Part shown: in pieces, positions 5,035 through 51,431 of the stretch | Numbering within the stretch: position 1 is the stretch's first letter | Layout of the letters: each line of letters begins with the position of its first letter | DNA from: Thermoplasmata archaeon | Lineage (GTDB): Archaea; Thermoplasmatota; Thermoplasmata; Lutacidiplasmatales; UBA184 | Direction of reading: 5' to 3' | Assembly: GCA_022749895.1 (NCBI GenBank) | Contig: JAKIWS010000004.1 | Location: forward strand, 6,195-70,194 | DNA length: 64,000 bases | Program-made: the position numbers and the translations under genes | Notes under the pieces: model-generated | What the model was told of the DNA's origin: nothing | Database searches by the model: none | What the model saw: only the letters and a program-made list of their open reading frames with translations

Positions 5035-5209
5035 CAGCTTTCGCTCCGGCCATCGGCCGCCGTCGCGGCAAATAACGCCTGCCCACGGCCCTCCGTGCCA
5101 CGGGGACGAACGCGCCGTTCTCACGGATGATGAGTTGTGTGAAAGTCTAAGTAGTGCCCGTCGGTCGGCGCGCACGGATAGGGATTCTGATCCTTCCAGC
5201 CAGTTACTC

Positions 5210-7372
5210 ATGCTGTCCTTCACGGCGGATCGCCCGCCCGCGATTCCACGTCTCGGCCTCACCCGCTCGGGCCGTTCTGGTCGGCGGTGCTTGGCGGCCG
5301 GGATCCTCGTCCTGCTCGTCGCCGGATCTGTCGGGCCGCTGTTGACGCGCCCTATCTCCCCGGGAGCGCCTCCGATCCCGGCGGCCGGCGCGGCGCGATC
5401 GCCGCTCGGTCTCGCTCCGATTCACGCCAGCGGACACCTCGCGGCGACCACACCCCGCCCCTCGGCCGTGAGCCCGTACACGTTTCACACGACCGAGCCG
5501 GCTCCCGCGGGCGTCACCGACTACGGCGTCGACGCCGCTCAGAACCCCTACTACTACTCGACGTCGATGTTCCAGGCGTCGGCCTCGATCCGGAGCTTGC
5601 TCACCTACAAGTCCGGGGCCGGGACCGCGGCGTACGACATGACGTTCCAACTGAACGTGGTGCTCCACCTCACGAACGGACCGAACGAGCTCGACTACTG
5701 GATCCAGAACGTCGTGAACATCAACACCTCGGCCAAGTCCGTGTACTTCCTGAACAATGTCTGGAACCTATCCTCCTCCGCCGGCCACCTCAACGCGGGC
5801 GACGTGTCGGGGAACGGGACGATCAACTCGATTGGGTCGACCACGTGGTACGCGGCCGTCGCGGCCTACGGCCTGCCGGGCAACTTCGTGTACCTGAGCT
5901 ATCCCACGACGGTCTCCGTGCGCGTCATTTCGAGCGACGCGACCGGGACCCCGCACGTCGCGTTCCAGTACGCGGACGGTTTTGGATGGGTGACCTACGA
6001 CAATGTGAGCGTCAACGCGGCGCGCGGTTGGGGCGACTCCGGATTCTGGGTCACGGGCTACCAGTACACCCCGATCGGGGTGTTCTTCGACGCCGAATTC
6101 GATTTCACCGGGACCTCCAGCCCCGGATCCACCGAGAACGACGTGCTCTCCAACCTGGACTAGACGCTCGAGCGGTGGAACGGACACAACTTCCCGGCGG
6201 TCCCGATTGCGTACAACTTCGGGAGCAACCCGGGGGTGGTGCTCCAGAACTTCGTCTCCTCCCGCGCCGTCGGCGCGGCCGACGGAACCTTGTCCGCCCA
6301 CGAGGTCAACGGCACCGGGTTGCTCGGCCTCCTCTACGATGCCCGCAACGTCTCGATCCTCAATGCCTCGATTCCGACGGTTCCCGCCGGCACGCTGTAC
6401 GTGGGGGGAACTCCCCACGCCTACGTTGGGAACGACGTGAACCTCACCCTCGGTCCGGGCACCTACCATTTGAGGCTCGACGGTCCGGCCGGAACGGTCA
6501 CCTCCCTCAACGTCAGCGTGTACCGCGGCGAGTACCTCGCGATCGTCCTCGCTCGGCCGTCGTACTACGTGGCGACGTTCACCGCGGTCGGGCTCCCGGG
6601 AGGAACGCCCTGGTCGGTCACCGCTTCCGGCGTGGTCCAGAGCGGGATGTCATCCTCCCTCGTCTTCAACGAGACCAACGGGACGTACACGTTCGTCGTC
6701 GCCCCCGTCGCCGGATACGTCGCCGCCATCTGGGCGGGAACTTTTGTCGTGAATGGAACGAACACCCTGCACGTCGTCAACTTCTCGGCGTTCCTTTACA
6801 TGGTCGATTTCGTAAGCGAGAACCGGCCCGCCAACCTGGCGTGGACCATCGCGATCGGGGGCTCTCAAGCGACGGGGACCGGGACCACGCTCGGCTTGCA
6901 CGAACCGAACGGGACCTTCACCTACATCGTCACCACGGAGAACCGCTACGAGGCGAGCCCGGCCGCGGGGACTCTTACGGTGGCGGGAGCCGGGGCCTCG
7001 ACCTCGGTCTCCTTCGCGCTACGTCCGGGCTACCTGACCGGTTCGGTCGCTCCCCTCGCGGCGGTCGTCACGATCGACGGGAGCGCCATCGCGACGGCCG
7101 ACGGCGTGTTCAACGTGACGCTCGCTCCGGGCCCGCACACGATCACAGCGAGCGCGACCGGGTTCCAACCGTTCTTCGCGAACGAGAGCGTCACCCCGGG
7201 GAACGCGACGGACGTGCCGATCACCCTCGCCGCGCTCCCGGCGCCCGACGACGGGAGCACGGCGAGTTCTCTGCCCTCGTGGGCGTTCGTCGGGGTAGGG
7301 ATCGCGGTCGTTGCGGGGGCCGTGATCGTCGGCGGGGCCTACGTGGTCTCCCGGCGCCATCGGGGTCGCTGA
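5210..7372 (+). pseudogene. Thermopsin-family (peptidase A5) exported protein with beta-sandwich repeats and a C-terminal TM anchor, interrupted by one in-frame TAG at 6161..6163
   Basis: ORFs 5135..6163 and 6236..7372 are in the same frame and are separated only by TAG. Thermopsin-like blocks lie before the stop (APAG, FQLNVVL, YWIQNV, NNVWNLS, FDAEFDF) and continue after it (PAVPIAYNFG). There is an N-terminal signal/TM (CLAAGILVLLVAGSV) and a C-terminal TM + RRHRGR. It could also be a sequencing error or a read-through. Confidence 0.6.
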
Positions 7373-10168: not shown

Positions 10169-12565
10169 TCAGGCGACGATCTCGATGGCGTAGTCGCGAC
10201 CCTCCCAGCCGGGACGGCGCGGCCAAAAGAACGTGAATATGACCGTCCCGCGTTCGCCGTCGGGGAGGTTGAGGTCCACGTACTCGAGCTCGAGGGCCGT
10301 CGACACAGAGTCGAGGTCCTCGACCGTCGCCCAGCCGTCCCGACTCACGTGGAGCCGGAACGGTTCGCTCGTGAGGACCCGGAGCGTTCCGCCGGCGTGA
10401 GCGACGGCGGTCTGTCGGTTCGGTTTCCACACCTCGAATCGCCGGCGCGGCGGACCGGCCGCGAGGTACCGCGCCGAGACCTCCGGGATGCATCCGAACA
10501 CCGCGCCGTCGTCGATCGACCGCAGGAGCTTGAGATACTCCGAATGGGCCCAGAGGAGCGGCATCGCGGCCCCGGTCGGTTTTCCGAGCGCGAAGTGGCG
10601 GGTCGAACCGGCGGGCCGGTCCCAGACCTGCTCGGGGAGGAGTCCGGTAGCGCTCGCGAACCGCTCCATCGCCCGGACGAACGGCGCCGGGTCCCTCCCC
10701 GCGGCGAACTCGTACATCCCCCGCTCCCCGGTGAGGAGCGGCCAGGCGCGACCGACCCCGGTGCCGAGGAACGGCCCCCCGTCCTCCGGCTCGCCGTAGC
10801 CGTCGTGGTTGTAGCGGTGCCAGACCGGCCCGGACGGCGTCTCCACCTTCAGCAACCGATCGACGAGGCGGAGCGAGTCGACGACGACCGGGTCGTGCGG
10901 CGACCGGATACCGTACCGGACGAGTTCGAGGAACCCGGGGTCGATGATCTCCTTGGCCGGGAAGACGTTCGCCGTGCCGGGCGGGAGGTTGGGCAGTTCG
11001 ACCGTCCCCGTGTTCGGGTCCTCGTCCGGGCGGGGGTCATCGAGCCGCACCGGTCGGATCCGGATGTAGTGCCGGGGGATCGTCGGGTCGAGGGTACCCG
11101 ACGTGGTCACCGTCCACGTCTCGAGATGGCTCTCCAGAAAATCGGCGTACTCCAGCAGGAACCGCTCCGTCAACGCATCGCCCCGGTCCCGGGCGAAAAC
11201 GCTCGCGGCGACGAGCGCCGCGATGTTCGCCGCGAGGGTCGAGGGAGAGTACCCGCTGAGCTCTTCCCACCGTTCCTGCCCCGTCGCCGGACCGCGGTCG
11301 ATCAGGAACCGGGCCGCGCGCAGGATCATCGGGTACGGGTCGAAGCTCTGCAGCGCCTCATCGTGCCGCAACCGGTGGGCCAGCAGGATCGGGAACGAGA
11401 CCTCGTCGAGCTGCACGCCCCGCCAGTACGGTTCCCCGTCGAGCCAGAAATTCTGCGGGAAACCGCCGTCCCACTGCTGCGCGGCCGCGAGGTAGATGAG
11501 CGCCCGAAGGGGGGTCTCCGATTGCCCGACCGCGAGGAGCCCGAGCGAGGTCTTCACAAGGTCGCGGGTCCAAACGAGATGGTACCCTCCGCGGTCGTCG
11601 TCGCCCTTCGCGTTGCCCCACGGGATCGAGAGCGACGCGATGAACGCGCCGGGAAACGTCTTGTCCTCGTGGCCGAGGAGCAGGCTGTAACTGGCGTGGT
11701 ACAGATTGCCCCGGTCGTGGCTCCGGCGCTCGAGCGGCCGGATCTTCTCACAGGCCCGGTCCCACTGGCGGCTGAACCGCTGGCGCAGGGCCGAAAACGG
11801 GGTGCCGAGGCTCTGGAGCAGCGTCGCGATCGCGCTCTCCAGGCTCTGGCCAAAAGCGAGGGCGAGGGTGAACTCGCCGGCGTCGGGAACCTCGACCTCC
11901 GCGATCAGCGCGAGGTTCCCGTCGAGGGCCCGGTCGAACTCCCAATCCATGCGGTAGTTGTCCGCGAGGTCGGTCCACCCGTCGCTGCGGCCGACGAACC
12001 CGACCGAGAGGTGGGGCAGCTCCGCGTCGGCGCCCAACGCGAGCCATGTCCCGTGCCGTTCGGCGACGAGGACCGACCGGTCGGTGAGCTCGACGACGTA
12101 GCCGTTGTTGCCCGCCCCTCCGACGTCGAGGTGCGGGGCCAGCAACGCGTAGAGATGGAGCGGAGGGTCGAGGTCGGCGCGCGGCGTGAACGTCGTTCGG
12201 AGTAGGACGGCCGGAAGATGGGGGTGAGCGATCACCTCCTTCTCGAGCACGTAGCGCCGCTCGGGGTCGCTTGCGGTCACGCGGTAGCCCAGAGCGTGGT
12301 CGCTGAGCCGGGCGACGCGCGACGCGAGATGCCGCTTTTCCTCGTGGAACAGCCCGTGGCCGTCGGCGACGAGGTACTGCAGGTCGCGGATCTGGGGGTG
12401 GTCGATGAGGGGGAAGTAGGCTTCGGTCAGGATCCCGCGTTGGATCGTGAACCATACGCGACTATCGGCCGAATAGCTGGTCCCGACACCTTCCTTGTCG
12501 CCGGCCGTCCACCGGGGGGTGATGCCCGGCGCACCGAACGCGTCGCGCTCGCCCCGGAACCTCAT
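10169..12565 (-). CDS. GH15 glucoamylase/glucodextranase-type glycoside hydrolase (N-terminal beta-sandwich, (alpha/alpha)6 barrel, C-terminal beta domain)
   Basis: N-terminus MRFRGERDAFGAPGITPRWTAGDKEGVGTSY...FTIQRGILTEAYFP is typical of prokaryotic glucoamylases. Catalytic-domain blocks HLVWTRD and GQERWEE are present. The ATG overlaps the pgl stop (ATGA at 12562..12565). Confidence 0.85.
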   Translation of the reverse strand: MRFRGERDAFGAPGITPRWTAGDKEGVGTSYSADSRVWFTIQRGILTEAYFPLIDHPQIRDLQYLVADGHGLFHEEKRHLASRVARLSDHALGYRVTASDPERRYVLEKEVIAHPHLPAVLLRTTFTPRADLDPPLHLYALLAPHLDVGGAGNNGYVVELTDRSVLVAERHGTWLALGADAELPHLSVGFVGRSDGWTDLADNYRMDWEFDRALDGNLALIAEVEVPDAGEFTLALAFGQSLESAIATLLQSLGTPFSALRQRFSRQWDRACEKIRPLERRSHDRGNLYHASYSLLLGHEDKTFPGAFIASLSIPWGNAKGDDDRGGYHLVWTRDLVKTSLGLLAVGQSETPLRALIYLAAAQQWDGGFPQNFWLDGEPYWRGVQLDEVSFPILLAHRLRHDEALQSFDPYPMILRAARFLIDRGPATGQERWEELSGYSPSTLAANIAALVAASVFARDRGDALTERFLLEYADFLESHLETWTVTTSGTLDPTIPRHYIRIRPVRLDDPRPDEDPNTGTVELPNLPPGTANVFPAKEIIDPGFLELVRYGIRSPHDPVVVDSLRLVDRLLKVETPSGPVWHRYNHDGYGEPEDGGPFLGTGVGRAWPLLTGERGMYEFAAGRDPAPFVRAMERFASATGLLPEQVWDRPAGSTRHFALGKPTGAAMPLLWAHSEYLKLLRSIDDGAVFGCIPEVSARYLAAGPPRRRFEVWKPNRQTAVAHAGGTLRVLTSEPFRLHVSRDGWATVEDLDSVSTALELEYVDLNLPDGERGTVIFTFFWPRRPGWEGRDYAIEIVA

Positions 12566-13347
12566 GCCACCCCGGGCTCGGTCCGCACCCGGGGGTCGAT
12601 TCCCGGCATGCCGTCGGCCGAAGATCGGTCGAGAAAGAACGTCCGCGCGTCGGTCGCTCCGACGCGCGCCGCGGGGACGGGGGGTTCGGGGCTGGGGAGC
12701 AGGACGCGCCGGACCACTTCCCGTTTCTCGACCCCGGTCGCGAGGAAGTAGACGTCGCGCGAGGCCGAGAGCGCCGGCAACGTCAGCGTGAGCCGCGGAA
12801 CCTTCGGGTCACGAGGCGGCTCCGACTCGACCGCGACCCAGCGGTTCGTGATCTCCACCGCCGGACGACCCGGGAACAACGAGGCCGTGTGGCCGTCGGG
12901 ACCGATACCCAATATCATCACGTCGAACACCGGCCTTCCGGCCACGAAGCGGCCTCCCGACCCGACGAGGCTCCCCAACATCTCCTCGAAGGCGGCCGCC
13001 GCCGCGGCCGGGGGGATGACCTCGCCCAGCCACCGGTGGACCTGGCGGGGGGGGATCGGCACCCGGGCAAGGAACTCGGCGAACGCCGCGCCGTAGTTGC
13101 TGCGCGGATCATCCGGCGCGACGCACCGCTCGTCGCCCCAGAGCAGATGGGTCCATTCCCACGGGAGGCGCGCGAGGCCCGGTCCCGCCAGCCAGCGGAA
13201 CAGCGGGAGCGGCGTCGTTCCGCCCGGCAGCACGAGCAGGAATCGACCTGAACGCGCAACGGCGGTGCGTCCCGCTTCGGCGAGTCGCTCGCCGACCTTC
13301 GTGGCGAGGGCTTCCGAATCCGGCAGGACTTCGACCGTCGTCCTCAC
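12562..13347 (-). CDS. pgl: 6-phosphogluconolactonase
   Basis: LVLPGGTTP, WGDERCV and GIGPDGHTASLFPG motifs. The GTG start (13347..13345) overlaps the zwf TGA (GTGA). The upstream 278 aa of ORF 12562..14184 are a shadow of zwf. Confidence 0.8.
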   Translation of the reverse strand: MRTTVEVLPDSEALATKVGERLAEAGRTAVARSGRFLLVLPGGTTPLPLFRWLAGPGLARLPWEWTHLLWGDERCVAPDDPRSNYGAAFAEFLARVPIPPRQVHRWLGEVIPPAAAAAAFEEMLGSLVGSGGRFVAGRPVFDVMILGIGPDGHTASLFPGRPAVEITNRWVAVESEPPRDPKVPRLTLTLPALSASRDVYFLATGVEKREVVRRVLLPSPEPPVPAARVGATDARTFFLDRSSADGMPGIDPRVRTEPGVA

Positions 13348-14810
13348 GGACGGGACCACGGCTCTTCGTCCGGATGCAGAAGTCCCTGCGCCGCGTCCGG
13401 GCCCCACGAGCCGGCGGCGTAGTCGTGCGGGGCCGGCGGCTGCGCGAGGAGCTTGGCGTAGAGGCGCCAGGAAGCTTCGACCTCGTCGGCGCGGACGAAC
13501 AGCGTCGCGTCGCCTTCGACGACGTCGAGGAGGAGCGTCTGGTAGGCGTCGGGGAGATTCCCGAACTGTTCCGCATACCGGAACCGCATCCGCTCGGTCT
13601 TGGTCGCGACCGTCTGGCCCGGCGCCTTCACCTCGAAGACGAGGTCGAAACCTTCGTCCGGCTGGAGCGTCATCACGAGCTCGTTCGAGTGGACCTCGTC
13701 GGGGTCGAGGTCCCGGAAGAACGTCACCGGGGGTCGCTGGAAGTTCACCACGACCTGCGTGACGCGGTTTCCCAGGCGCTTCCCCGTCCGAAGATAGAAC
13801 GGAACGCCTTGCCACCGCCAGTTTTCGATCTTGAGCCGCAGCGCGACGAACGTTTCCGTCGTCGAGCCGGCGGGAACGCCGCTCTCGGAACGGTAGGCGG
13901 GAACGGCCGCCCCGGCGATCCATCCCGCGGTGTACTGACCGAAGACCGCTTGCTCGGGTTCGACGGGGGCGATCGAATGCAGGACCTTCACCTTCTCGTT
14001 GCGGATCGCGTCCGCGTCGAACGCGGCGGGGACCTCCATGGCGATGAGCGACAGGAGCTGGGTCAGGTGGTTCTGGACCATGTCCCGGAGCGCCCCCGCG
14101 CGGTCGTAGTAGGCGGCGCGCGCCTCGACGCCGAGGTCCTCCGCGACGGTGATCTCGACCTTGGTCACACGATCCCGGCTCCACAGGGATTCGAACAGAA
14201 CGTTGGCGAACCGGAGCACGAGCAGGTTCTGGACGGTCTCTTTTCCGAGATAGTGGTCGATCCGGTAGATCGACGGTTCGTCGAAGTACGTGTGGACGAG
14301 CGCGTTCAGGTCACGCGCCGTCTCCAGGTCGCGGCCGAACGGCTTCTCGATGACGATCCGGGTCCATCCCGGACCGTGGTTCAACCCGGCCTCGGCGAGT
14401 CCCTTGATCGTCGGCGCGAACGCCTCGTACGGTAGGGCGAGGTAGAGGACCCGGTCGCCGCTGAGCTGGTGATCCGCCTCGACCTTGGCGACCCGGGCGG
14501 CGAGGTTCTGGTAATCGGCGGGGGTTCCCTCGCCGATCGACTGGTAGTGCAGCACCTTCCGGCACCAGGGGTCGATGGCGTCGGGATGGTACGGCGAGAA
14601 CTCCTTCAAACCGGCGGCCGCCCATGCCTGGTAGCTGGCGTCGTCGAACGAGGAGGTTCGCGCGGCGCCCAGCACGGCGCTCTCCGCAGGAAGATGGTCG
14701 TCCGCGGAGAGGCCGTAGAGGGCCGGGAGGAGCATCCGACGCATCAGGTCGCCTGTCGCGCCGACGACGACGAACAGCGGGCGGGTCGGGGGGGGCGCCG
14801 GGCCGGCCAT
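13344..14810 (-). CDS. zwf: Glucose-6-phosphate 1-dehydrogenase (canonical Zwf)
   Basis: VVVGATGDLMRRMLLPALY (GxxGDLx), EKPFG, RIDHYLGKE and a C-terminal dimerisation domain. Start at ATG 14810 (MAGPAPPP), 2 nt after the gnd stop. Confidence 0.9.
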   Translation of the reverse strand: MAGPAPPPTRPLFVVVGATGDLMRRMLLPALYGLSADDHLPAESAVLGAARTSSFDDASYQAWAAAGLKEFSPYHPDAIDPWCRKVLHYQSIGEGTPADYQNLAARVAKVEADHQLSGDRVLYLALPYEAFAPTIKGLAEAGLNHGPGWTRIVIEKPFGRDLETARDLNALVHTYFDEPSIYRIDHYLGKETVQNLLVLRFANVLFESLWSRDRVTKVEITVAEDLGVEARAAYYDRAGALRDMVQNHLTQLLSLIAMEVPAAFDADAIRNEKVKVLHSIAPVEPEQAVFGQYTAGWIAGAAVPAYRSESGVPAGSTTETFVALRLKIENWRWQGVPFYLRTGKRLGNRVTQVVVNFQRPPVTFFRDLDPDEVHSNELVMTLQPDEGFDLVFEVKAPGQTVATKTERMRFRYAEQFGNLPDAYQTLLLDVVEGDATLFVRADEVEASWRLYAKLLAQPPAPHDYAAGSWGPDAAQGLLHPDEEPWSRP

Positions 14811-14812
14811 GC

Positions 14813-15721
14813 TCAGCCTTCGTGCTCGACGGCGTGGCCGCCGAACTTGGAGCGCATCACCGCGAGGAGCTTGTCGCCGAACGACTCGGCTTCGCGGGAG
14901 CGGATCCGGTCGATCAGCGAGAGCGTGATCACGGGCGCCGGCACGTCGAGGTCGAACGCTTCCGTTGCCGTCCACCGGCCCTCGCCCGAGTCGACCACGA
15001 ACGGCTTGATCCCGGCGAGCTCGGGGTTCTCGTGCAACGCGGACGCGGTCAGGTCGAGGAGCCAGGAGCGGACGACGCTGCCGAACCGCCAGATCTCGGC
15101 GACCTGCGTCACGTCGAGCTCCATCGTCCCCTTGTGCTTCAGGATCGAGAATCCTTCGGCGTACGCCTGCATCATCCCGTACTCGATCCCGTTGTGGACC
15201 ATCTTGACAAAGTGACCGGCCCCGGTCGGTCCGACGCGCCCCCATCCACGGTCCGGGGCGGGGGCGAGCGTCTGGAGGAGGGGCGAAATGCGGGTGACCG
15301 CCTCGACCGGCCCTCCGGCCATCAGGCTGTACCCCTCGGCGAGCCCCCAGATCCCTCCGCTCGTGCCGACGTCCACGTACGGGAAGCCCTTCGCCGCGAG
15401 CGTGGCGCTGCGACGCAAGGTGTCCTTGTAGTACGAGTTGCCGCCGTCAACGATCAGGTCCCCGGGACCGAGCTGCGGGAGGAGCGCGTTGAGGGTGGCG
15501 TCGACCGGGTCGCCGGCGGGGATCATGAGCCAGATCACGCGCGGCGGGGTGAGCTTCTTGAGCAGCTCCTCGAGCGAGTACGCGCCGACGATCCCGCGGG
15601 CGACCGCGGCGTCGACGACCTCGCGATGGAGCGCGGTCCCCACGACCCGGTGGCCGCCGTGGACGAGCCGTTCGGCCATGTTGGCGCCCATCCGTCCCAG
15701 CCCGACCATGCCCACTTCCAT
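14813..15721 (-). CDS. gnd: 6-phosphogluconate dehydrogenase, short (~300 aa) decarboxylating type
   Basis: MVGLGRMGANMAERL Rossmann fold, DGGNSYY, GTSGG and VKMVHNGIEYGMMQAYAEG. Start at ATG 15721 (MEVGMVGLG). Confidence 0.85.
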   Translation of the reverse strand: MEVGMVGLGRMGANMAERLVHGGHRVVGTALHREVVDAAVARGIVGAYSLEELLKKLTPPRVIWLMIPAGDPVDATLNALLPQLGPGDLIVDGGNSYYKDTLRRSATLAAKGFPYVDVGTSGGIWGLAEGYSLMAGGPVEAVTRISPLLQTLAPAPDRGWGRVGPTGAGHFVKMVHNGIEYGMMQAYAEGFSILKHKGTMELDVTQVAEIWRFGSVVRSWLLDLTASALHENPELAGIKPFVVDSGEGRWTATEAFDLDVPAPVITLSLIDRIRSREAESFGDKLLAVMRSKFGGHAVEHEG

Positions 15722-15744
15722 GTTGCTCTCCCTTCGAAGGAACG

Positions 15745-17448
15745 TCAGCCACGCGGGCGCGCTTCCACCCACGCGGCGACCTCATCCACGAACTCCACCG
15801 CCGCGCCGGGCGCCGCCAACGTCACCACGGTCCGTCCCCGCTGGCGGAGCGCGGTCGCGTCCCCCCGGACCTGAGCATGGATGAGGGTACCGAAGGTGAA
15901 CTCGCTCCCGGGTACCGGGAGGTCTGGAATCGCTGCGTCGACGAGTTGGACGAACGCCCCCGTCGGGGGCCCCCCCTTGTGGAGCTGCCCGGTGGAATGG
16001 AGGAATCGCGGACCGTACCCGAGCGTGGTCGGTACGGTCAAACGGTCCCCGACCGCTCGGCGGAGCCGGTCCAGCGCCCGGTCCAGGTCGTCGGACGGCG
16101 CGAGGTAGGCCTGGAGGCCGATGTACTCGCCGGGGTGCCGCACATCGACGAGTTCCGCGAACTCCGGCGAGGACCCGGGCGAGGCCGCCGGAGGGTTCGT
16201 AGAGGTCGGGGGAGGCGCCGCGAGGGCTTGCCGAGCGAGGACCTTCGCGAACTCGACATCCGGCTGGTCGAATGGGTGGATACCGAGGGCGACCCCCGCG
16301 CAGGCGATGGCAAACTCCCACCGGAAGAATTCGCCCCCGAGCGCGAAGCGGTCGTCCCACCGGAGACGGACCGTTGGCACCCCGTGTCGTTCGAGGGCCT
16401 CCAACGCCGACTCCCGGCTCCGGTCGCCCGCGAGCGCGAGGTCCACGACGACCCGGTCGCTCCCGTAGAACTCGGGGGGACGGAACGCCTCCGACGCGAT
16501 CGGGACCAGACCTCGGCCGTCCTTCCCGGTGCTCTCGGCGATCAGCTGCTCGACCCAAATGGGGAAGGCGGAGAGCTCGGGGGAGGTCCAGATCGTCACC
16601 TTGTCGCGGCCGCGACGGCCGAGCTCCCCCAACAGCGCGCCCAGCTGGAGTCCCGGATGTCGGTCCGCACTTCGCTCCGGCCCACAGGCGGACGCCATCG
16701 CCCGCGCGGACGCGAGCAGCCGATCGAGGTCGATGCCGATGAGCGCCGCTGGCACCATCCCGAAGACGGAGAGAGCGGAGTACCGCCCCCCGAGGTCCGG
16801 GGCGGCGGCGAAGGTGGTCCGGAACCCGCGGGTCCGGGCCAGGGCCTCGAGCGGCGTTCCCGGGTCCGTGATCGCCACGAACCGGCGGCCCGGCGCCGAG
16901 GTCGTGGCCGCGACGCGTTCCCAGAAGTAGCGGAACAGCGTAAGCGTCTCCGTCGTCGTCCCCGACTTGCTGGAGACGAGGAACAAGGTGGTGTTGGGGT
17001 CGATCGCTCCCTCTACCTCACGAACCGCACCCGGGTGGGTGCTATCGAGAACGGAGAGCGTCGGAAATCCCTTGGCGGCCCCGAAGGTCCGGCCGAGCAC
17101 TTCCGGAGCGAGGCTGGAGCCGCCCATCCCCAGCAGGACGACGTTCTGGGTCCCGGCCTCCCGGGTCTCGTCGGCGAATCCCCGAAGTTCCTCGAGGCGG
17201 CCGCTGATCGCCTCCGGAAGACCCAGCCAACCGAGTCGGTCGACGATCTCGGGCCGGATCGCATCGAACCAAACGGTCGGATCCTTCTTCCAGATTCGCG
17301 CGCCGACCCCGGCCGCTTGCCAGCGGGCGAGCCGGGCCTCGACGGCCTGGCGCTCGTCGGGTGACGGTACCGCGAAGCGCCCCACCTCGGGCGTCGCCGG
17401 GACTACGGGGTCGGGAACCGCGCTCGTAGGCGGGCGAACGAGGTTCAC
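15745..17448 (-). CDS. pgi: Glucose-6-phosphate isomerase (bacterial SIS-domain PGI of the type found in transaldolase/PGI fusions)
   Basis: LLGMGGSSLAPEV, FLVSSKSGTTTETL, GGRYSALS and QLIAESTGK blocks. The start is uncertain; GTG 17448 was chosen so that it does not overlap the divergent gene. Confidence 0.75.
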   Translation of the reverse strand: MNLVRPPTSAVPDPVVPATPEVGRFAVPSPDERQAVEARLARWQAAGVGARIWKKDPTVWFDAIRPEIVDRLGWLGLPEAISGRLEELRGFADETREAGTQNVVLLGMGGSSLAPEVLGRTFGAAKGFPTLSVLDSTHPGAVREVEGAIDPNTTLFLVSSKSGTTTETLTLFRYFWERVAATTSAPGRRFVAITDPGTPLEALARTRGFRTTFAAAPDLGGRYSALSVFGMVPAALIGIDLDRLLASARAMASACGPERSADRHPGLQLGALLGELGRRGRDKVTIWTSPELSAFPIWVEQLIAESTGKDGRGLVPIASEAFRPPEFYGSDRVVVDLALAGDRSRESALEALERHGVPTVRLRWDDRFALGGEFFRWEFAIACAGVALGIHPFDQPDVEFAKVLARQALAAPPPTSTNPPAASPGSSPEFAELVDVRHPGEYIGLQAYLAPSDDLDRALDRLRRAVGDRLTVPTTLGYGPRFLHSTGQLHKGGPPTGAFVQLVDAAIPDLPVPGSEFTFGTLIHAQVRGDATALRQRGRTVVTLAAPGAAVEFVDEVAAWVEARPRG

Positions 17449-17577
17449 GATATGGGGCTTTGCGTCCCGATAGAGGGAGGTTCCGGGTCGAGGTTGCTCG
17501 TCATCGACTCCCGTAAGTTTGGCTCCGCCACTGTTATCCCGAGTTCGCCTCCTCTTACCGCTCCCGCGAGGCTTCCG

Positions 17578-20097
17578 GTGGGTCCGACTCTGAGGAGGTG
17601 GGCGCTGCACCTCGCGCTCGTTGCGGTCCTTGGCCTCCTCCTTCTCCCGGTAGGGGGCCTCGCGGCGAGCTCCGGCCTACCCACCCCCCCCCGCCACGTT
17701 GACGTCACCCCGTCCGCCGCCCGGGCCGACCAGGCCGTCTCGTCCCCGGCGACCTCCTCGGTCCCGCGCACCCACCCTTCGCCGGCGATCACCGGCGCGT
17801 ACGACTGGGACCCTCAACCCCTCAACTTGTTCTCTCCGTTCCCCGTCGACCAGGTCGGTGGATTGGGGGCGGTCATGGCGGCGAGCGACCCTCTCCGGTC
17901 GGGCGTGATGTTCGGCGGTCAGGGCCTTCAGGGCCTCACCAACATCACGATCACCTTCAGTCAAGCCACGGGATTGTGGGACACGCGGCCGGTCGTCGGT
18001 GCGCCGACCCCGCGAGCGAATCTCTCGCTCGCGACGATGCCCGGCGGCAAGTTCGCCGTCGCCTTCGGCGGCGTTGTGAACCTCTCCACGGGGCGGTGCG
18101 ACAATCTGACGTTCGTCTTCGATTTCCGCAACCGTTCCTGGGTCAACCGGTCCGGCGCCATCGCGCCACCCCCGCGCGAAGGGGCGGCGTTCGCCGTCGA
18201 CGCGAGCCGCAATGTGGCGATCCTGGAGGGAGGGCGCGACCGCGACTACCGGGTGGGCGGTTCCGGGGCGTACGTGTTCTGGAACGACACATGGCTGCTC
18301 AACCTCTCCACCTTCCGATGGAGCCGGGCGTCCACGACCGTCGCCCCGCCCCCGATGTTCGGTAGCTCGATGGTCTGGGTTCCCCAGACCGACTCGTTCC
18401 TCTTGTTCGGCGGCTGTGCGACGTTCTGCACGAACCAATTGTACAATTACACGGTGGGGGGCACCTGGACCGCGGCCGTCCAGACCGGCGACATCCCGGC
18501 CCCCCGCGGGGCGGCCTCCGAGGCCTGGGTCTCGACGTGGAACATCACGATGCTCTCGGGAGGTTTCGTCTGGGGGAACAACACGTACGTTCCCCTCGGA
18601 GACACGTTCATCTTCACCCCGGCGATCCACCAGTGGGACATCGTCGGCAGCGCGGGAGGTCCCACCCCGCGCTTCGGTTCAGCCGCTGCGGCCCTCAACG
18701 CCAACCAGTGCCCGGGACTGTTCCTCGTCGGTGGGAGCACCGCCTGGTCGCCCCCCCCGGCCGACGGATGGTTCCTCGACCAGAACCCGGACATCGACTT
18801 CGGGTGCAACATCTGGGGGGGCGATGAGAGCGGGGGCAGCACCGGGGGCGGAGGCGTCGGCAATTGCCCCGTCGGGTCCAACACGAGCGCCCTGTCGGTC
18901 CGGGTGCTCGACCGGGCGACGGGTCTCGGGATCGTCGGGGCCAAAGTCAACATCACCGGCTACTGCAGCCTCCAACTGTTCACCACCGTCGGGGGTTACG
19001 CCAACTTCACGAACCTACCGAACGAGACGGTACGGATCCTGACGACGTTCCCGACCTACCACCTGAACGTCACCTACGCCCGACTCCCCGTTCCCACCAA
19101 TCGGCTCATCGTCGAGATGGATCGGTACCCCGCGCTGACGGTCCGAACGGTCGCGACGTACGCCAACCTGGGGGTCGTCGCGCTCCCCGGTATCCTCGTC
19201 CTGTTCCAGTCGACGTTGGGCCCCTCCGTCCTGGGCACCACCGACGCCAACGGCTACCTCCGCTTCCCCGTCTTCCAAGGAGCGGAGGGCCCGACGACGT
19301 TCACGGCCGCGGCCGCCGGCTACGCCAACGCCACCGCGGTCGGGGTCGTGCCGTTCACCGGGCGCGTCAATGTCACGATCGACCTCCTCTCGTACGGCGG
19401 ATTCGACGTTCACGTTCTTCGCGACCCGAACGGCCCGTCGATCGGCGGCGCCGGCGGAACGATCGTCCCGGTCGGGAACGCGGCGTTCGGGAGCCCGATC
19501 CCGTTCGTGACCGGCCCCAACGGGTGGTTCAACGTCTCCTTACCGCTCTCGAACTACACGGTCTTCGCCTCCGCCGCCGGGTTCCTGCCGAACCACACCG
19601 CGCTCCCGGTGGCGCACGGCTGGGTCAACGCAACGATCGTGCCGATTCCACTCTTGCTCCTCTACGGGGCGAACGTGAGCGTTCGCCTCGTGGACTCCGT
19701 GACCCATCTCCCGATCGCGGGTGGGAACGTCACGATCGGTTCCCGCCGACCGTCGGTCACCGGACCGCTCGGCTGGGCGAACTTCACGAACCTGAGACCG
19801 CCGGGGCGGGCGGAGATCCTCGGCCAGGCGGACGGGTACTTCAACAACTCCACGGCCGTCGATCTCGAGTACCGAGGCGCGTTCCCCGATGTCCGGCTCG
19901 ACCTGGTCCCGATGACCGGCTGCGCCCCGAACTGCCCTCCGCCCACCAACGGGACCCCGGCCGTCTCGCCGTTCCGGCTGCTTCCGTCCGGAGGGATCGC
20001 CCTCGAGCTGTTCTTCCTGGCGCCCGTCCTCCTCGCAGCCGCCGGCACGGCGTACGCGCTGTACCTCCGCCGGTCACCGTCCCCGCGTTCGATCTAG
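17578..20097 (+). CDS. Exported Kelch-repeat beta-propeller protein with carboxypeptidase-regulatory-like beta-sandwich repeats and a C-terminal TM anchor
   Basis: Signal peptide from GTG 17578 (GPTLRRWALHLALVAVLGLLLLPVGG). Repeated FGG...W / PPR.G motifs (Kelch). Repeats such as VRVLDRATGLGIVGAKVNITG...GYANFTNLP. C-terminal LFFLAPVLLAAAGTAYALYLRR. Many N-x-S/T sequons. Confidence 0.7.
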   Translation: MGPTLRRWALHLALVAVLGLLLLPVGGLAASSGLPTPPRHVDVTPSAARADQAVSSPATSSVPRTHPSPAITGAYDWDPQPLNLFSPFPVDQVGGLGAVMAASDPLRSGVMFGGQGLQGLTNITITFSQATGLWDTRPVVGAPTPRANLSLATMPGGKFAVAFGGVVNLSTGRCDNLTFVFDFRNRSWVNRSGAIAPPPREGAAFAVDASRNVAILEGGRDRDYRVGGSGAYVFWNDTWLLNLSTFRWSRASTTVAPPPMFGSSMVWVPQTDSFLLFGGCATFCTNQLYNYTVGGTWTAAVQTGDIPAPRGAASEAWVSTWNITMLSGGFVWGNNTYVPLGDTFIFTPAIHQWDIVGSAGGPTPRFGSAAAALNANQCPGLFLVGGSTAWSPPPADGWFLDQNPDIDFGCNIWGGDESGGSTGGGGVGNCPVGSNTSALSVRVLDRATGLGIVGAKVNITGYCSLQLFTTVGGYANFTNLPNETVRILTTFPTYHLNVTYARLPVPTNRLIVEMDRYPALTVRTVATYANLGVVALPGILVLFQSTLGPSVLGTTDANGYLRFPVFQGAEGPTTFTAAAAGYANATAVGVVPFTGRVNVTIDLLSYGGFDVHVLRDPNGPSIGGAGGTIVPVGNAAFGSPIPFVTGPNGWFNVSLPLSNYTVFASAAGFLPNHTALPVAHGWVNATIVPIPLLLLYGANVSVRLVDSVTHLPIAGGNVTIGSRRPSVTGPLGWANFTNLRPPGRAEILGQADGYFNNSTAVDLEYRGAFPDVRLDLVPMTGCAPNCPPPTNGTPAVSPFRLLPSGGIALELFFLAPVLLAAAGTAYALYLRRSPSPRSI

Positions 20098-20163
20098 GAC
20101 CTGGGGGGCGCGTCGTGCGAGCGTTCTCGGATGCCGGCGGCTCGAAGGGGTCCGAATGCGAGG

Positions 20164-20169
20164 TTTATA
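20164..20169 (+). promoter_or_regulatory. Archaeal TATA-box-like element (TTTATA) upstream of the MoxR operon
   Basis: GGTTTATAGACC is an AT island in otherwise GC-rich DNA. In-frame GTG 20182 and TTG 20194 lie 12-25 nt downstream (possible leaderless start), and ATG 20290 lies further on. Confidence 0.35.
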
Positions 20170-20289
20170 GACCGTGCGGGGGTGGGCGGCACCTTGGCCG
20201 CTCCTAAGCCCGACGCCCGGCCCGCCCGCGGCCGGGTCGCTGGATGGGTCCGTCGCCTCCTCCACCCGCGCCTCGTGATCCTGGAGACG

Positions 20290-20709
20290 ATGCGCCCGGT
20301 CGAGGTTCCGGTCCTGACCGAGACGAAGCGCCGGTGGGTCCAGGGCGAGCGAGAAGGGGCGATCCTGTACGCCTACGAGGCCGTCCTGGCCGACCTCCAG
20401 CGCGCCTACGGCGTCCGCTACCCCCCGGACTGGACGCACGACGACATCCTCGTCCACGGCGTCACGCCGGAGATGGAGCCGATCCTTCCGTTCGTGAAGG
20501 AGCTCCACGACCAGTACCTCCCGCTGCGGTACGGCGGCGTCGTCCCCGAAGGATTCCCCTCGCCCGAGCGGCTCGTCCAAAGCGTCTACTCGCAGCGGGC
20601 GATGTGGGCGCTGTACGTCGAGGGCATCCGCCACGACGACGCCCGCCGCCCCTCCGGCGCGGTGACCGCTTCGAGATCCTCCCCCGATCCGGCCGAGGTG
20701 GGCGCGTGA
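20290..20709 (+). CDS. Hypothetical protein, first gene of the MoxR operon (possibly DUF4129-like)
   Basis: Protein-like composition from MRPVEVPVLTETKRRW. The start could be as early as TTG 20194. Its stop overlaps the next start (GTGA 20706..20709). Confidence 0.45.
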   Translation: MRPVEVPVLTETKRRWVQGEREGAILYAYEAVLADLQRAYGVRYPPDWTHDDILVHGVTPEMEPILPFVKELHDQYLPLRYGGVVPEGFPSPERLVQSVYSQRAMWALYVEGIRHDDARRPSGAVTASRSSPDPAEVGA

Positions 20710-21230
20710 GCGGGGACGCGCTGAGCGCGCTCAGCAGCCTGTTTCGCGAACCGACCTTGGGGCTTCCCATCGCCCTGCTCGTGATCGCCCTCGCCCTCTG
20801 GCTCGCCTGGCCCAGCTCGGCCCGCCGGGCCCCGGCGCGGCGGGCCGGAGGCTGGTCGCCCCCGTCGACCGACCTGGTCTCCCAGACGTACTTCGCCCTC
20901 GCGAACGGGGAGTACTCCCGCGTCCTCGAGGAGGTCGACGACCGGTTCGCCGCTGCCGTCGAGCGCGGGCGCGGTCAACCGATCGACCGTTTGCCCCGCA
21001 CCCGCAGCGCGGGAGCCCGGCAGGGCATCTCGGACGCGGTCGAGCTGCGGCGGTGCCACCGCGAGCTCATCGGTCTCCGCGCGAGCGCCATCTCGCGCGA
21101 GAGCCGGTTCTTCGTCCGGTGGGCGTTCTGGCGCACCGAGGCGGACGACCGGAGCCGCTTCCTCCGCGCGATCGACCGCGAGATCGAGCGCGCCACATCC
21201 TGGATCCGCACCTTGGAGAACCATCGATGA
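20706..21230 (+). CDS. Single-pass membrane protein of the MoxR operon
   Basis: TM helix LGLPIALLVIALALWLAW followed by a helical Arg/Glu-rich domain. It is coupled on both sides by 4-nt overlaps. Confidence 0.45.
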   Translation: MSGDALSALSSLFREPTLGLPIALLVIALALWLAWPSSARRAPARRAGGWSPPSTDLVSQTYFALANGEYSRVLEEVDDRFAAAVERGRGQPIDRLPRTRSAGARQGISDAVELRRCHRELIGLRASAISRESRFFVRWAFWRTEADDRSRFLRAIDREIERATSWIRTLENHR

Positions 21231-22309
21231 CGATGCCGTCGAAACCGAACGCCGTGGCCCCCGCCGAACCTCTCCGCGCCCCGTCGCCCGCTCCGGCGGC
21301 CGCTCCCCCGGTCGCCCCGGCGGCGCGACCGCCGACGGTGGGGGGCGAGCTCACCCCTGAAGGGATGCTGGCGGCCCTGCAGTCGTCGGTCGGCGAGACG
21401 ATCGTAGGCCTGGGCGGCGTGATCCGTCTCCTCGCGGTCGCGCTCGTCGCGGAGGGCCACGTCCTGCTCGAGGGGGTCCCGGGCCTCGCCAAGACCCTGC
21501 TCGTTCGCCAGTTCGCGGCCACGCTCGCGCTGAGCTTCAAGCGGATCCAGTTCACGCCGGATATGCTGCCGTCCGACATCGTCGGGAACGTCATCCTCAA
21601 CCCCGCCGCCCAGAAGTACGAGTTCCGGCGCGGCCCGGTCTTTGCGAACGTGATCCTCGCCGACGAGATCAACCGGGCGCCCCCGAAGGTCCAGTCGGCC
21701 CTGCTCGAGGCGATGCAGGAGCGCCAGGTCACGGTGGACGGGATCACCTACCCGCTCCCCCGGCCGTTCATCGTCATCGCGACGCAGAACCCGGTCGAGC
21801 AGGAGGGCACCTACCCGCTCCCCGAGGCCGAGCTCGACCGGCTCCTGTTCCGCATCCTCCTCGGCTACCCCTCCGAGGCCGACGAGTTCGAGATCATGCG
21901 ACGGCACGGCTCCCGCATCGACGAGGTCGCGACCCCCGCGCCCCTCACCGCGGAGGTGCTGACGCGCTACCGGGACCGGTCGCTCGCCCTCGACGTCCGG
22001 GACGAGGTGCTGCGGTACATTGGTGCCGTCGTACGGGGGACGCGGGGCGACGCCCGGATCCTCATCGGCGCCTCCCCCCGGGCCAGCGTCCAGTTCGTTC
22101 GGGCCGCCAAGGCGAGTGCGCTGCTCGACGGCCGCACGTACGTCGCCCCGGAGGACGTGAAATCGCTCGCCTTCGAGGTGCTCAACCACCGGTTGCTCCT
22201 GCACCCCGAGACGATCACGCAGCAGTACGTCTCCGGACGCAGCGGTCTCGAACCCGTGCTCCGCGAGATCGTGGGCGACGCGCTCGGCAAGGCCGTGGTC
22301 CCCCGCTGA
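21227..22309 (+). CDS. MoxR-family AAA+ ATPase
   Basis: Walker A-like LLEGVPGLAKT, Walker B ILADEINRA, and QERQVTVDG...FIVIATQNP. Confidence 0.9.
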   Translation: MTMPSKPNAVAPAEPLRAPSPAPAAAPPVAPAARPPTVGGELTPEGMLAALQSSVGETIVGLGGVIRLLAVALVAEGHVLLEGVPGLAKTLLVRQFAATLALSFKRIQFTPDMLPSDIVGNVILNPAAQKYEFRRGPVFANVILADEINRAPPKVQSALLEAMQERQVTVDGITYPLPRPFIVIATQNPVEQEGTYPLPEAELDRLLFRILLGYPSEADEFEIMRRHGSRIDEVATPAPLTAEVLTRYRDRSLALDVRDEVLRYIGAVVRGTRGDARILIGASPRASVQFVRAAKASALLDGRTYVAPEDVKSLAFEVLNHRLLLHPETITQQYVSGRSGLEPVLREIVGDALGKAVVPR

Positions 22310-22349
22310 GCCGCCCGACGTCGACCTCTCCGAACGCACGAACGCGCCG

Positions 22350-23666
22350 ATGATCACGCGACGCGGCTGGGAAGCGGTCGCGGCGACCCTCGTCGCCCTG
22401 GTGCTCGCCCTGGTGACGGTGAACCCGCTGGTCGCGCTCGTCGCGGTCGCCGCCTTCGGGTTCGTCGCGACCGAGATGGTCGTCGCGGCGGTCCGGTTCC
22501 TTCGCCTCACCCCCGAGCAGTTCCACGTCGAACGGGCCGCGGGTTCGCGCCGGCTCCCGCAGGACGGCCAGGTCGAGGTCGCCGTCGCGATCCGGTGCTC
22601 CCCGACCACAGGATTCCAAGCGGACGTCTACGACGTCGTTCCCACCTCGTTCGACGTCGAGCGGGGCGCGGCCTCGCTCGCGACGTGGGTCCGGCCCGGC
22701 GATGTGATCCGCCTCGCCTATACGATCTGCCCCCGGGTCCGCGGCGCCTTCGTCCTCGGCCCGACCGTGATCGTCGCCGAGGACGCACTCGGGCTCGTCC
22801 GGCACCCGATTGTCCTCGACCGGGGGCGGCCGCTCATGATCGTGCCGTCGTCCGTGATGGGCCGGCTCGGCAAGCTCGGCGTCGCGCTGTTCACGCGGAT
22901 GCAGGCCGGGCTCTCGATCCGGCGGCGGGGGTTCGGCACCGAATTCCGGGCCTTGCGCGGCTACCAGCCGTCCGACGATATCCGGCACGTGGCGTGGAAA
23001 CGGTCGACGATCGACAACATCGTCGTGCGGGAGTTCGAGCAGGAGAGTCGGCAGGACTTCCTCCTCGTCCTCGACCTTTCTCCCCCGATGGAGGCCGGGC
23101 TCTGGGGCCGCAGCGCGCTCGATGCGAGCGTGGAAGCGGCCGGGCTCCTCGCGAGCCTGATCGCGCGCGGCGGCGAGGACCAGGTCGGGCTCCTCACCTA
23201 CGCGGGGGGCGTCCACCAGTTCCTCCGCCCCGGCCGGGGCAATCGCCACTTCCGACGGCTCGCGGACAACTTGGCCCTCGCGGAGCACCGGACCGGCCCG
23301 TGCGAGCTACCGCAGCTGTTCCTGGACACGACGCGGCGGCTCCGGATCGGGACGCATCTGTTCGTGTTCAGCGCTGCGAACGGCTCGCTTGAACGACTCC
23401 CGGCCGCCCACGCGAACCTCCGCGCGCACGGCCATCGGCCGTACCTGTTCCTGCCGGACCTCGCGCTGTTCTACCCGGGGGCCCCCGATCGGGGCGCGAC
23501 GCGGGCGTTCGCCTGGGCGCAGGACGAGGAACGTCGCGGCTTTCATCAGAAGCTGCTCGCCGCCCGGACGCAGGGGATACCGACCTTCACCTTCGATCGG
23601 CGCGGCGCGAGCGACCGCGTGATCTTCGCGTACACCCAGATCCGCGGCTGGGGGAGCGCGCGATGA
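22350..23666 (+). CDS. DUF58 (vWA-like) protein, partner of MoxR
   Basis: Two N-terminal TMs, then the signature RGYQPSDDIRHVAWKRS and FLLVLDLSPPM (degenerate MIDAS-like). Confidence 0.85.
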   Translation: MITRRGWEAVAATLVALVLALVTVNPLVALVAVAAFGFVATEMVVAAVRFLRLTPEQFHVERAAGSRRLPQDGQVEVAVAIRCSPTTGFQADVYDVVPTSFDVERGAASLATWVRPGDVIRLAYTICPRVRGAFVLGPTVIVAEDALGLVRHPIVLDRGRPLMIVPSSVMGRLGKLGVALFTRMQAGLSIRRRGFGTEFRALRGYQPSDDIRHVAWKRSTIDNIVVREFEQESRQDFLLVLDLSPPMEAGLWGRSALDASVEAAGLLASLIARGGEDQVGLLTYAGGVHQFLRPGRGNRHFRRLADNLALAEHRTGPCELPQLFLDTTRRLRIGTHLFVFSAANGSLERLPAAHANLRAHGHRPYLFLPDLALFYPGAPDRGATRAFAWAQDEERRGFHQKLLAARTQGIPTFTFDRRGASDRVIFAYTQIRGWGSAR

Positions 23667-24652
23667 TCGGCCGGGTGATCCGGACCGGTACGATCGCGCC
23701 GCTGTTCCTCTACGGGATGGCGCTGCTCGCTTTCGGCATCCGACCGCTCTCCGCCGCCACCGTGGGTCTCGCCATCGTCATCGGTCTCCCCGCCGTCGCG
23801 GTCGTCCGCCCGAATCTGCTCGCGCCGATGGTCGGACTCTCGGCGCTCATGATGGGATTCGTGGGGGCGATCACCGTGCTCACGTCGGGTCCGCCAACGG
23901 GACTCGGAGCGGAGCTCGTCGTCGCGCTCCTCCTCGGCCTCTTCCCGTGGTTGCTCGGCGTCTCGGTGGTTCTGGGCGACCGCCCGGGCGTCGGGCTGTT
24001 GGGACTTACCGTGGGCCTCATCGAGATCGTGTCGATCGGCGCGGCCGTACCGGCGTCCTTCGGTCGGAGCCTCGGGCCCGACGGCTTCGTCGTCCGCTGG
24101 TACAGCGCGGGGGGCCGGCAGTTCGACCTCTTGGGTCAGATCCTCGCCGGCAAAGGTCTTCGGTCGACCGGACCGTTTCCGTACCAGTCCGTCATCGCCC
24201 CGCTCCTGGTCGGTCTCGCCATCCTCGCGCTCGCCGGACTCCTCCTTCCGTGGCTGCGTTCCTCCCCGGTGGGGATCCGGGCCCCCGGTGCCGTTCCCCG
24301 ACGCGACATGGCGGCGCCGACGCGGACCGTACCCTGGCCGCTGAACCGCGGCGCTCGCGCCCCGGTCACCCGGCCCGTCCCGGGCCCCGGCGCAGGCCTG
24401 GCGCCGATCGTCGGAGCGCTCCTCGCCACCGGAGGGTTCGCGGCGGCGGCCGCGCTGGCCCCCGTCTACGCCTTCCTCCTCGCGGCCGCGGGAGCGACCT
24501 TCGTCATCGTGCTGCTGATCACGCTCAGCTTCGGAGCGCGCTTCCGTCGCGGGCGCGGGACTCCGCCGATCCCGGCGCCGCGCCGGAGAGCGCTCAGCGT
24601 GCCGTTCGACGAGCGAGCCGTCGTGCCCGCTCAACCACGTGCTCCACCGTGA
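23663..24652 (+). CDS. Polytopic membrane protein, last gene of the MoxR/DUF58 operon
   Basis: At least 6 hydrophobic segments. ATGA overlap with DUF58. The low-complexity C-terminal tail overlaps the 3' end of convergent tkt by 59 nt, so the true stop is uncertain. Confidence 0.5.
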
Positions 24653-51164: not shown

Positions 51165-51431
51165 CTAGATCAGGCCCTCCTCCATCACCTCAACGGATTC
51201 GACATGGGGCACTTTCGCGAGCGCGTGCTCGGTCGCGTCGAGGACGCCGCTGACGTCCGCCATCACCACGCTCAGCAACAGCGACTTGAGCCCGTAGGCG
51301 ATATCCTTGACCTGCATCCCCCGGAGCGTCACGCCGGCGGGAAGGCTCGCCCGGGCGGCTTCCCCCAGCGCCTTCATGTCGGTCTCGACACCCTGCGGCA
51401 TCAGCCGGAACAGCACGGCGACCTGCCCCAT
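51165..51431 (-). CDS. Archaeal translation elongation factor 1-beta (aEF-1beta)
   Basis: 88 aa, MGQVAVLFRLMPQGVETDMKAL...IAYGLKSLLLSVVMAD...VESVEV aligns by eye with known aEF-1beta. Confidence 0.9.
   Translation of the reverse strand: MGQVAVLFRLMPQGVETDMKALGEAARASLPAGVTLRGMQVKDIAYGLKSLLLSVVMADVSGVLDATEHALAKVPHVESVEVMEEGLI

Follow-up and report, generated by a model that had tools for sequence, protein, structure and literature searches.

A bacterial-type oxidative pentose-phosphate operon with an adjoining glucoamylase gene in an archaeon of the order Lutacidiplasmatales

How did an archaeon come to carry a compact set of genes for the pentose-phosphate pathway's oxidative branch, and what would it use them for? 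Textbooks do not give a classical glucose-6-phosphate dehydrogenase (G6PDH) for archaea, and in haloarchaea the same role within the oxidative pentose-phosphate pathway is filled by Azf, a G6PDH unrelated to Zwf, together with GndA, a short-form 6-phosphogluconate dehydrogenase. The locus that raises the question lies in a stretch of 64,000 nucleotides (the window), which covers positions 6195-70194 of a 76.9-kb contig (JAKIWS010000004.1) in the metagenome-assembled genome (MAG) GCA_022749895.1, a Thermoplasmata archaeon of the order Lutacidiplasmatales (2.02 Mb, 106 contigs, 69% GC, 83% complete). An initial annotation of the window described a pgi-gnd-zwf-pgl operon joined to a glucoamylase gene, and proposed that this lineage had acquired the oxidative branch from Bacteria and wired it to alpha-glucan degradation. 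Our analysis indicates, with a probability of roughly 85%, that the locus works as an oxidative pentose-phosphate operon, transcribed as one unit and bacterial in origin, which an ancestor of the Lutacidiplasmatales captured and which has since been inherited with differential loss.

The identities of the operon genes and their packing were observed directly. Six genes follow one another on the minus strand:

15745-17448, minus strand: pgi, stand-alone bacterial-type phosphoglucose isomerase (start at GTG 17448 or GTG 17385)
14813-15721, minus strand: gnd, short-form (~300 aa) decarboxylating 6-phosphogluconate dehydrogenase
13344-14810, minus strand: zwf, classical glucose-6-phosphate dehydrogenase
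12562-13347, minus strand: pgl, 6-phosphogluconolactonase
10169-12565, minus strand: GH15, glucoamylase-type hydrolase of 798 aa
9260-10150, minus strand: divergent IF-2B-family gene, the sixth and last of the operon (PF01008, 78 bits)

The pgi and gnd genes are separated by a 23-nt gap, with a GGGAGAG motif upstream of gnd, and gnd and zwf by 2 nt; zwf overlaps pgl and pgl overlaps GH15 by 4 nt each (GTGA and ATGA, respectively), and the co-directional IF-2B-family gene begins 18 nt after GH15. These coordinates and junctions bear out the initial description of five co-directional genes that either overlap by 4 nt or lie no more than 23 nt apart, and every motif quoted for the encoded enzymes (RIDHYLGKE, EKPFG, GIGPDGHTASLFPG, VHNGIEYG and SKSGTTTET) was found in the translations. 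We would expect the block to be co-transcribed. Upstream of pgi, whose start is ambiguous between the two GTG candidates, inspection by eye recovered weak TATA-like strings only.

Zwf is full-length, with both domains present (PF00479 at 4e-50 and PF02781 at 3e-112), and scores 555 bits against TIGR00871 (cut-off 400.6), which places it in the classical family, unlike the haloarchaeal enzyme. Its best match among solved structures is 9emm (E 1e-129). The catalytic motifs RIDHYLGKE (His) and EKPFG (Lys) align with those of solved G6PDHs, and LGAARTS aligns with their VGFARRD / VGYARTK, so that the arginine binding the NADP 2'-phosphate is kept. Because the catalytic motifs and this arginine are both preserved, Zwf likely makes NADPH. 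Pgl scores 179 bits against TIGR01198 (cut-off 124), and Gnd is matched at full length by NF007161 (433 bits, cut-off 271) and TIGR00872 (358 bits, cut-off 297), two models whose names disagree on NAD versus NADP. The isomerase scores 58 bits against PF00342 (cut-off 22). We rejected its assignment as a bifunctional transaldolase/phosphoglucose isomerase (Tal-PGI): the NF007080 model for such fusions gives 607 bits (E 5.5e-182), below the cut-off of 712, and covers the protein with the PGI half alone (profile positions 389-777 of 949). To our knowledge, none of the operon enzymes has been biochemically characterised from an archaeon of this order.

The two genes that follow pgl are less sharply defined. 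The GH15 protein combines PF09137 (Glucodextran_N, 3.5e-93) with PF00723 (Glyco_hydro_15, 5e-28) and scores 681 bits against the glucoamylase model TIGR01535, under the cut-off of 742, with glucan, maltooligosaccharide and trehalose as possible substrates. Its N-terminus is not hydrophobic, and the enzyme is therefore probably cytoplasmic. The IF-2B-family protein stays far under the cut-off in all NCBIfam subfamilies (best 54 bits) and could not be placed with R15P isomerase, MtnA or aIF-2B. The position of its gene 3' of GH15 is kept in three genomes, namely that of the window and the related MAGs Thermoplasmata archaeon AcS5-107 (L011) and SMAG_U6321 (L012).

The distribution of zwf is confined to one family. 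In a sample of 401 genomes drawn evenly from the class (58 from the window's own family and 343 from other families), the gene was found in 38, all of them members of Lutacidiplasmataceae, the window's own family, where they cover six of the seven genera: 27 of 44 genomes in the window's own genus and 11 of 14 in the five other genera. None of the 343 sampled genomes from other families of the class contains it, in line with the premise of the initial annotation that classical Zwf is generally missing from archaea. A phylum-wide sample added two further full-length zwf genes only, of a distant type with 37-39% identity and long branches. A search seeded with the Zwf of a genus mate recovered about 45 named Thermoplasmata MAGs; among them are numerous AcS isolates and Candidatus Lutacidiplasma silvani AcS3-62, the type genome.

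Phylogenetic trees place these archaeal sequences together and within bacterial diversity. In a Zwf tree of 107 sequences all 31 Thermoplasmata fall in one clade nested among bacteria, with a support of 98 in the Shimodaira-Hasegawa-like approximate likelihood-ratio test (SH-aLRT); in a tree of 139 sequences all 54 Lutacidiplasmatales do so (SH-aLRT 99). A full tree search on 88 representatives recovers the clade, type species included, with an ultrafast bootstrap and an SH-aLRT of 99 each, and in 98% of bootstrap trees. Around the clade stand sequences of Acidobacteriota, Gemmatimonadota, Zixibacteria and comparable groups, among which it is nested, and the window's Zwf sits in a small subclade of it with L011, L012 and L014, the last labelled Lutacidiplasmatales GcC5-34. 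In the Pgi tree, too, a single branch sets the order apart (support 86), and the Zwf, Gnd and Pgi sequences of the lineage all nest among bacterial ones. For the transketolase Tkt, whose gene lies with that of a ROK-family glucokinase candidate 7 kb from the operon, the nearest relatives outside the order are likewise bacteria, with Gemmatimonadales at 64% identity. The donor would be sought among soil-type bacteria such as Acidobacteriota or Gemmatimonadota, with no single phylum to be named. With Zwf, Pgi and Gnd in the clade of the order, on an archaeal contig and with synteny kept, the window's genes belong to a Lutacidiplasmatales pentose-phosphate cluster of bacterial origin. An ancestor of the order would have taken up the operon within a larger rok-tkt-(tal-)pgi-gnd-zwf-pgl cluster, which would then have been inherited across the family with differential loss.

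The acquisition from Bacteria proposed by the initial annotation stands as regards bacterial type and origin, as the Zwf, Gnd and Pgi trees indicate. It does not stand as an event specific to this genome, since the gain is old and family-wide. Indeed, vertical inheritance and wide occurrence in the host group, which the initial annotation had named as evidence that would count against its proposal, come close to what we found (38 of 58 family genomes, one clade, bootstrap 99). Nor is the bacterial gain new, unusual as it is for archaea. In a survey from 2015 the share of archaeal genomes with classical G6PDH was 0% (PMC4518329), and Sheridan et al. (2022, Nat Commun 13:4110) inferred that zwf and gnd were acquired along the branch leading to the last common ancestor (LCA) of Lutacidiplasmatales (PMC9287336, supplementary text).

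Two further Zwf sequences come from bins outside the family. A 694-bp contig in a Candidatus Dormiibacterota bin (L165) encodes a piece of Zwf that is 70% identical to the Lutacidiplasmatales enzyme, well above its identity to any bacterial match; the contig is probably archaeal and ended up in a bacterial MAG through mis-binning. A 12-kb contig of a Candidatus Hydrothermarchaeales MAG (L016) carries pgi-gnd-zwf-pgl with a Zwf that falls among bacteria, outside the Lutacidiplasmatales clade; either another archaeal phylum acquired the locus independently, or the contig is bacterial and was mis-binned.

The imported genes meet a native pentose machinery, parts of which are kept. The initial annotation had suggested a check for the hps and phi genes of the ribulose-monophosphate (RuMP) route and for transaldolase. 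The window's genome has an HPS gene (223 bits, cut-off 200) and a PHI-like gene just under its cut-off (142 bits, cut-off 160), and both occur in nearly all relatives, zwf-positive or zwf-less. This led us to reject the replacement of RuMP by the oxidative branch. As HPS and the PHI-like gene are kept alongside Zwf, the oxidative branch came in addition to RuMP, and the genome departs from the textbook RuMP-only state in holding both routes. A short transaldolase is present as well. The HPS match itself (C11:10537-11148 in the window's genome) lies within a 441-aa open frame, as it does in most relatives, and HPS is probably fused to another domain in these genomes.

The native split transketolase shows a complementary pattern with the imported cluster. 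In ten zwf-less genomes of the family the unsplit Tkt is absent, and only the split archaeal tktN/tktC pair is found. Among 13 zwf-positive genomes tested, 11 are without the split tktN and two (G011 and G095) have both forms. The split pair adjoins tal in the genome G041; beside tal in the window's genome tktN is missing, and what is left looks like a remnant of tktC whose N-terminal part has degraded:

138389-139363 of contig C1 of the window's genome (L268:2890-3864), minus strand: tktC-like open reading frame, matching only the last 230 residues of the G041 homologue; tal lies at C1:137724-138347

The native split enzyme may thus have been displaced by the unsplit Tkt of bacterial type. 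The pattern also fits an ancestor that held both sets of genes, followed by differential loss.

Whether the operon belongs to the archaeal chromosome at all can be judged from its surroundings, in which three genes serve as archaeal markers:

4913-7372, plus strand: thermopsin-family protease (PF05317, 1e-53)
51165-51431, minus strand: aEF-1beta (PF00736, 5.5e-16)
52478-59125, minus strand: AglB/STT3 oligosaccharyltransferase of 2215 aa with a long C-terminal extension

The last of these matches the STT3 family PF02516 at 2.7e-8 and the AglB core at 7e-4 (20.3 bits, under the 27-bit cut-off). An HVO_2753-type zinc-finger gene beside aEF-1beta and a thiolase/DUF35 pair on the same contig also count as archaeal. 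GC content stays at 0.67-0.73 across the window and forms no island at the operon. Both the archaeal flanks and the uniformly GC-rich composition reported initially are confirmed by these matches and values. No RNA genes or tRNAs were found in the 64-kb window.

A MAG of 106 contigs and 83% completeness could in principle contain a piece of bacterial DNA attached to an archaeal contig by faulty binning or assembly, and a chimeric contig or bin had been named at the outset as grounds for discarding the proposal. We regard such an artefact as next to impossible here. The operon lies in the interior of the 76.9-kb contig, between thermopsin and aEF-1beta/AglB. A 1.22-Mb contig of L011 is collinear with the window at 56-90% protein identity, with the common order thermopsin, bcp, a small open reading frame, IF-2B, GH15, pgl, zwf, gnd, pgi, Kelch, MoxR and DUF58. 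L012 is collinear too, reading second GH15, rok, tkt, pgi, gnd, zwf, pgl, GH15, IF-2B, bcp and thermopsin. The junctions on both sides of the operon thus recur in independent MAGs from other studies, and the cluster is carried by more than 45 Thermoplasmata MAGs. Since L011 and L012 are independent and collinear across the operon and its flanks, the operon is resident in an archaeal chromosome. The same comparison bears on a recent, separate transfer from a bacterium into the immediate lineage of the window's genome. Such a transfer would account for the 59-61% identity of the window's Zwf to TA06, Terriglobia and Methylomirabilis sequences, as against 54-59% to most genus mates, and for a stand-alone pgi directly beside gnd, as in several bacterial loci. 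We rejected it as highly improbable, because despite these identities all trees join the window to L011, L012 and L014 within the clade of the Lutacidiplasmatales (support 98-99); moreover, composition shows no anomaly, and archaeal flanks that are collinear in relatives at 56-90% protein identity speak of long residence.

An acquisition that postdates the diversification of the family and reached only a subgroup of it, with later transfer among members of the order, deserves more weight, unlikely as we judge it to be. It would explain why zwf is patchy even within one GTDB genus (27 genomes with it and 17 without), why each of the three Zwf subclades mixes genomes of the same genus with genomes of the same family only, why the native split tkt is intact in zwf-less genomes and absent from most zwf-positive ones, and why the cluster behaves as a single unit that is present or absent. 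Against it, the published reconciliation has zwf and gnd gained along the branch that leads to the LCA of the order, the Zwf subclades are deeply diverged (~55% identity, with a comparable 60-65% for the linked Tkt), G011 and G095 hold both forms of tkt, as expected of intermediates in differential loss, and GC content is fully ameliorated. Ancestral capture with differential loss remains the reading we prefer, and several points weigh against it. The gene is absent from 20 of the 58 sampled family genomes; the Gnd tree favours monophyly of the order only weakly (support 16); the bacterial sister group of the archaeal Zwf clade is poorly supported (31) and does not resolve the donor phylum; and the bacterial sequences were sampled by peptide patterns taken from the archaeal proteins, so that closer donors could be missed. 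For the sequence of gains and losses we rely on the published reconciliation, since the present data do not separate gain in the LCA with subsequent losses from later gain and spread within the family. On the functional side, GH15 and ROK score below equivalog cut-offs, which leaves glucose release and phosphorylation at the level of family assignment. A last alternative concerns the pathway rather than its history: Zwf and Pgl are common to the bacterial Entner-Doudoroff pathway (PMC4518329) and might feed it, or another pathway that consumes 6-phosphogluconate, instead of a pentose-phosphate cycle. This is very improbable, as gnd lies within the operon, tkt, tal and pgi are present, and no Edd homologue was detected in the window's genome even at E 0.001 (~17% of the genome is unassembled), while the Edd/IlvD-family model finds matches in all 14 control genomes. 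We rejected Entner-Doudoroff use on the absence of Edd, from which it also follows that 6-phosphogluconate is expected to go to Gnd. Dihydroxy-acid dehydratase may itself be missing from the genome, or it may lie within the unassembled 17%.

In the pathway that we propose for the captured operon, cytoplasmic GH15 enzymes would free glucose from stored alpha-glucan, and a ROK glucokinase would convert it to glucose 6-phosphate (G6P). Zwf, Pgl and Gnd would oxidise G6P to ribulose 5-phosphate and CO2 with the formation of two NAD(P)H; Tkt and the transaldolase encoded elsewhere would return carbon to fructose 6-phosphate, and Pgi would convert the latter back to G6P. A glycogen-synthase-like GT4 glycosyltransferase gene is found in the same window. 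A flow from glucan through glucose and G6P to NADPH is plausible on the gene content, from which we infer the cofactor use, direction of flux and physiological role of the operon. Since the RuMP genes are retained, the gain was probably one of NADPH supply and not of pentose supply, and the benefit would probably lie in NADPH for an aerobic lifestyle rather than in pentoses. The link to glucoamylase, which the initial annotation took for wiring by the lineage itself, proves to be more widely shared: GH15 adjoins the same operon in Gemmatimonadales and Methylomirabilis and is convergent in other Lutacidiplasmatales. As bacterial loci also have GH15 beside the operon, the link is not an archaeal invention.

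The operon is one part of a larger cluster, the remainder of which lies further along the window, together with the block that splits it:

24594-26633, minus strand: tkt, unsplit bacterial-type transketolase (TIGR00232 tktlase_bact, 829 bits, cut-off 682)
26630-27661, minus strand: rok, ROK-family glucokinase candidate (PF00480, 207 bits; TIGR00744, 192 bits, below the cut-off of 260)
27658-29523, minus strand: gh15b, second GH15 hydrolase (PF00723; TIGR01577, 360 bits, below cut-off)
17452-24590, plus strand: Kelch surface protein and MoxR/DUF58 block (Pfam matches and comparison of collinearity)

In L012 the genes gh15b-rok-tkt-pgi-gnd-zwf-pgl-gh15 form an uninterrupted run, with 144 nt between tkt and pgi. 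The gh15b gene of the window is the first gene of this ancestral supercluster and is 79% identical to the gene directly 5' of rok-tkt-pgi in L012. The window and L011 keep the gene order of L012, but a Kelch/MoxR/DUF58 block of ~7 kb separates tkt from pgi. As this block is present in the window and L011 and does not lie between tkt and pgi in L012, an insertion or rearrangement split the ancestral supercluster. The two genes are neighbours in L012, in L014 and in most of the family; a second subclade (L107, L108 and L117) and L014 have the order rok-tkt-pgi-gnd-zwf-pgl, and most family members have tkt, a Tal-PGI fusion, a HAD hydrolase, gnd, zwf and pgl. The fusion is exemplified by the relative G002/L119, where NF007080 matches with 1170 bits over positions 3-945.

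The cluster is remodelled in the sublineage formed by the window, L011 and L012. Its members share a PGI without the Tal domain, the absence of the HAD gene between pgi and gnd, and co-directional GH15 and IF-2B genes downstream of pgl. The clusters of other Lutacidiplasmatales are orthologous, form a single clade and agree with the window in overall order, at 50-70% identity, but differ in their Tal-PGI fusion and in the HAD gene between pgi and gnd; GH15 lies downstream of the cluster in some of them, and any such gene is convergent, on the opposite strand, in contrast to the co-directional GH15 of the window. One could go further and suppose that the imported cluster, having displaced the native split tkt, was rebuilt as a supraoperon leading from storage glucan to NADPH, framed by two GH15 genes, in which the IF-2B-family protein would be a new sugar-phosphate isomerase tying the pentose-phosphate pathway to ribose-1,5-bisphosphate/nucleoside salvage. 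We consider this extended scenario unlikely. In one further MAG (L114/L150; G399, MFD09222.bin.1.10) the zwf match is split between two frames (profile positions 2-136 and 139-484), while the rest of the cluster is intact; either the gene is a pseudogene with a frameshift, or the assembly is in error there.

Among known systems, the closest is that of the Lutacidiplasmatales genomes of Sheridan et al. (PMC9287336), which belong to the same order, gained zwf and gnd, and agree with the window's genome in ~69% GC, a size of ~2 Mb and the presence of thermopsin, GH15 and GH57; the window's Zwf shares one clade with AcS3-62 and other AcS isolates of that study. Their account treats zwf and gnd only, in the supplement, without operon structure, donor analysis, pgl/pgi/tkt or the GH15 link, and the window represents a sub-branch in which the cluster is rearranged. 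In bacteria, tkt-(tal-)pgi-gnd-zwf-pgl clusters in MAGs of Acidobacteriota, Gemmatimonadota, Zixibacteria, Rhodothermales and Methylomirabilis have the same families, order and short-form Gnd at 54-64% protein identity, and some include GH15 (L020, L017), rok (L151) or tkt (L153). The window differs from them in its archaeal host, the PGI without a Tal domain, the appended GH15 and IF-2B genes and the 7-kb insertion. Hodarchaeales and Kariarchaeaceae of the Asgard archaea, likewise an aerobic archaeal lineage but of a different phylum, have been reported to encode an oxidative branch (bioRxiv 10.1101/2024.07.04.601786). A family of aerobic soil archaea with a bacterial oxidative pentose-phosphate pathway illustrates well how transfer between domains can reshape central metabolism. 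What the window contributes is confirmation and detail, namely the cluster as a physical unit and its family-restricted distribution; new here are the remodelled variant of the sublineage, with its glucoamylase and IF-2B genes, and the complementary pattern with the split transketolase.

A minor observation concerns the thermopsin gene on the plus strand, which contains an in-frame TAG at 6161-6163 (SNLD*TLERWNGH). L011 has valine at this place (SDLNVSLDRWNGH), and the TAG of this MAG probably reflects a nonsense mutation or an erroneous base, not a conserved recoding site.

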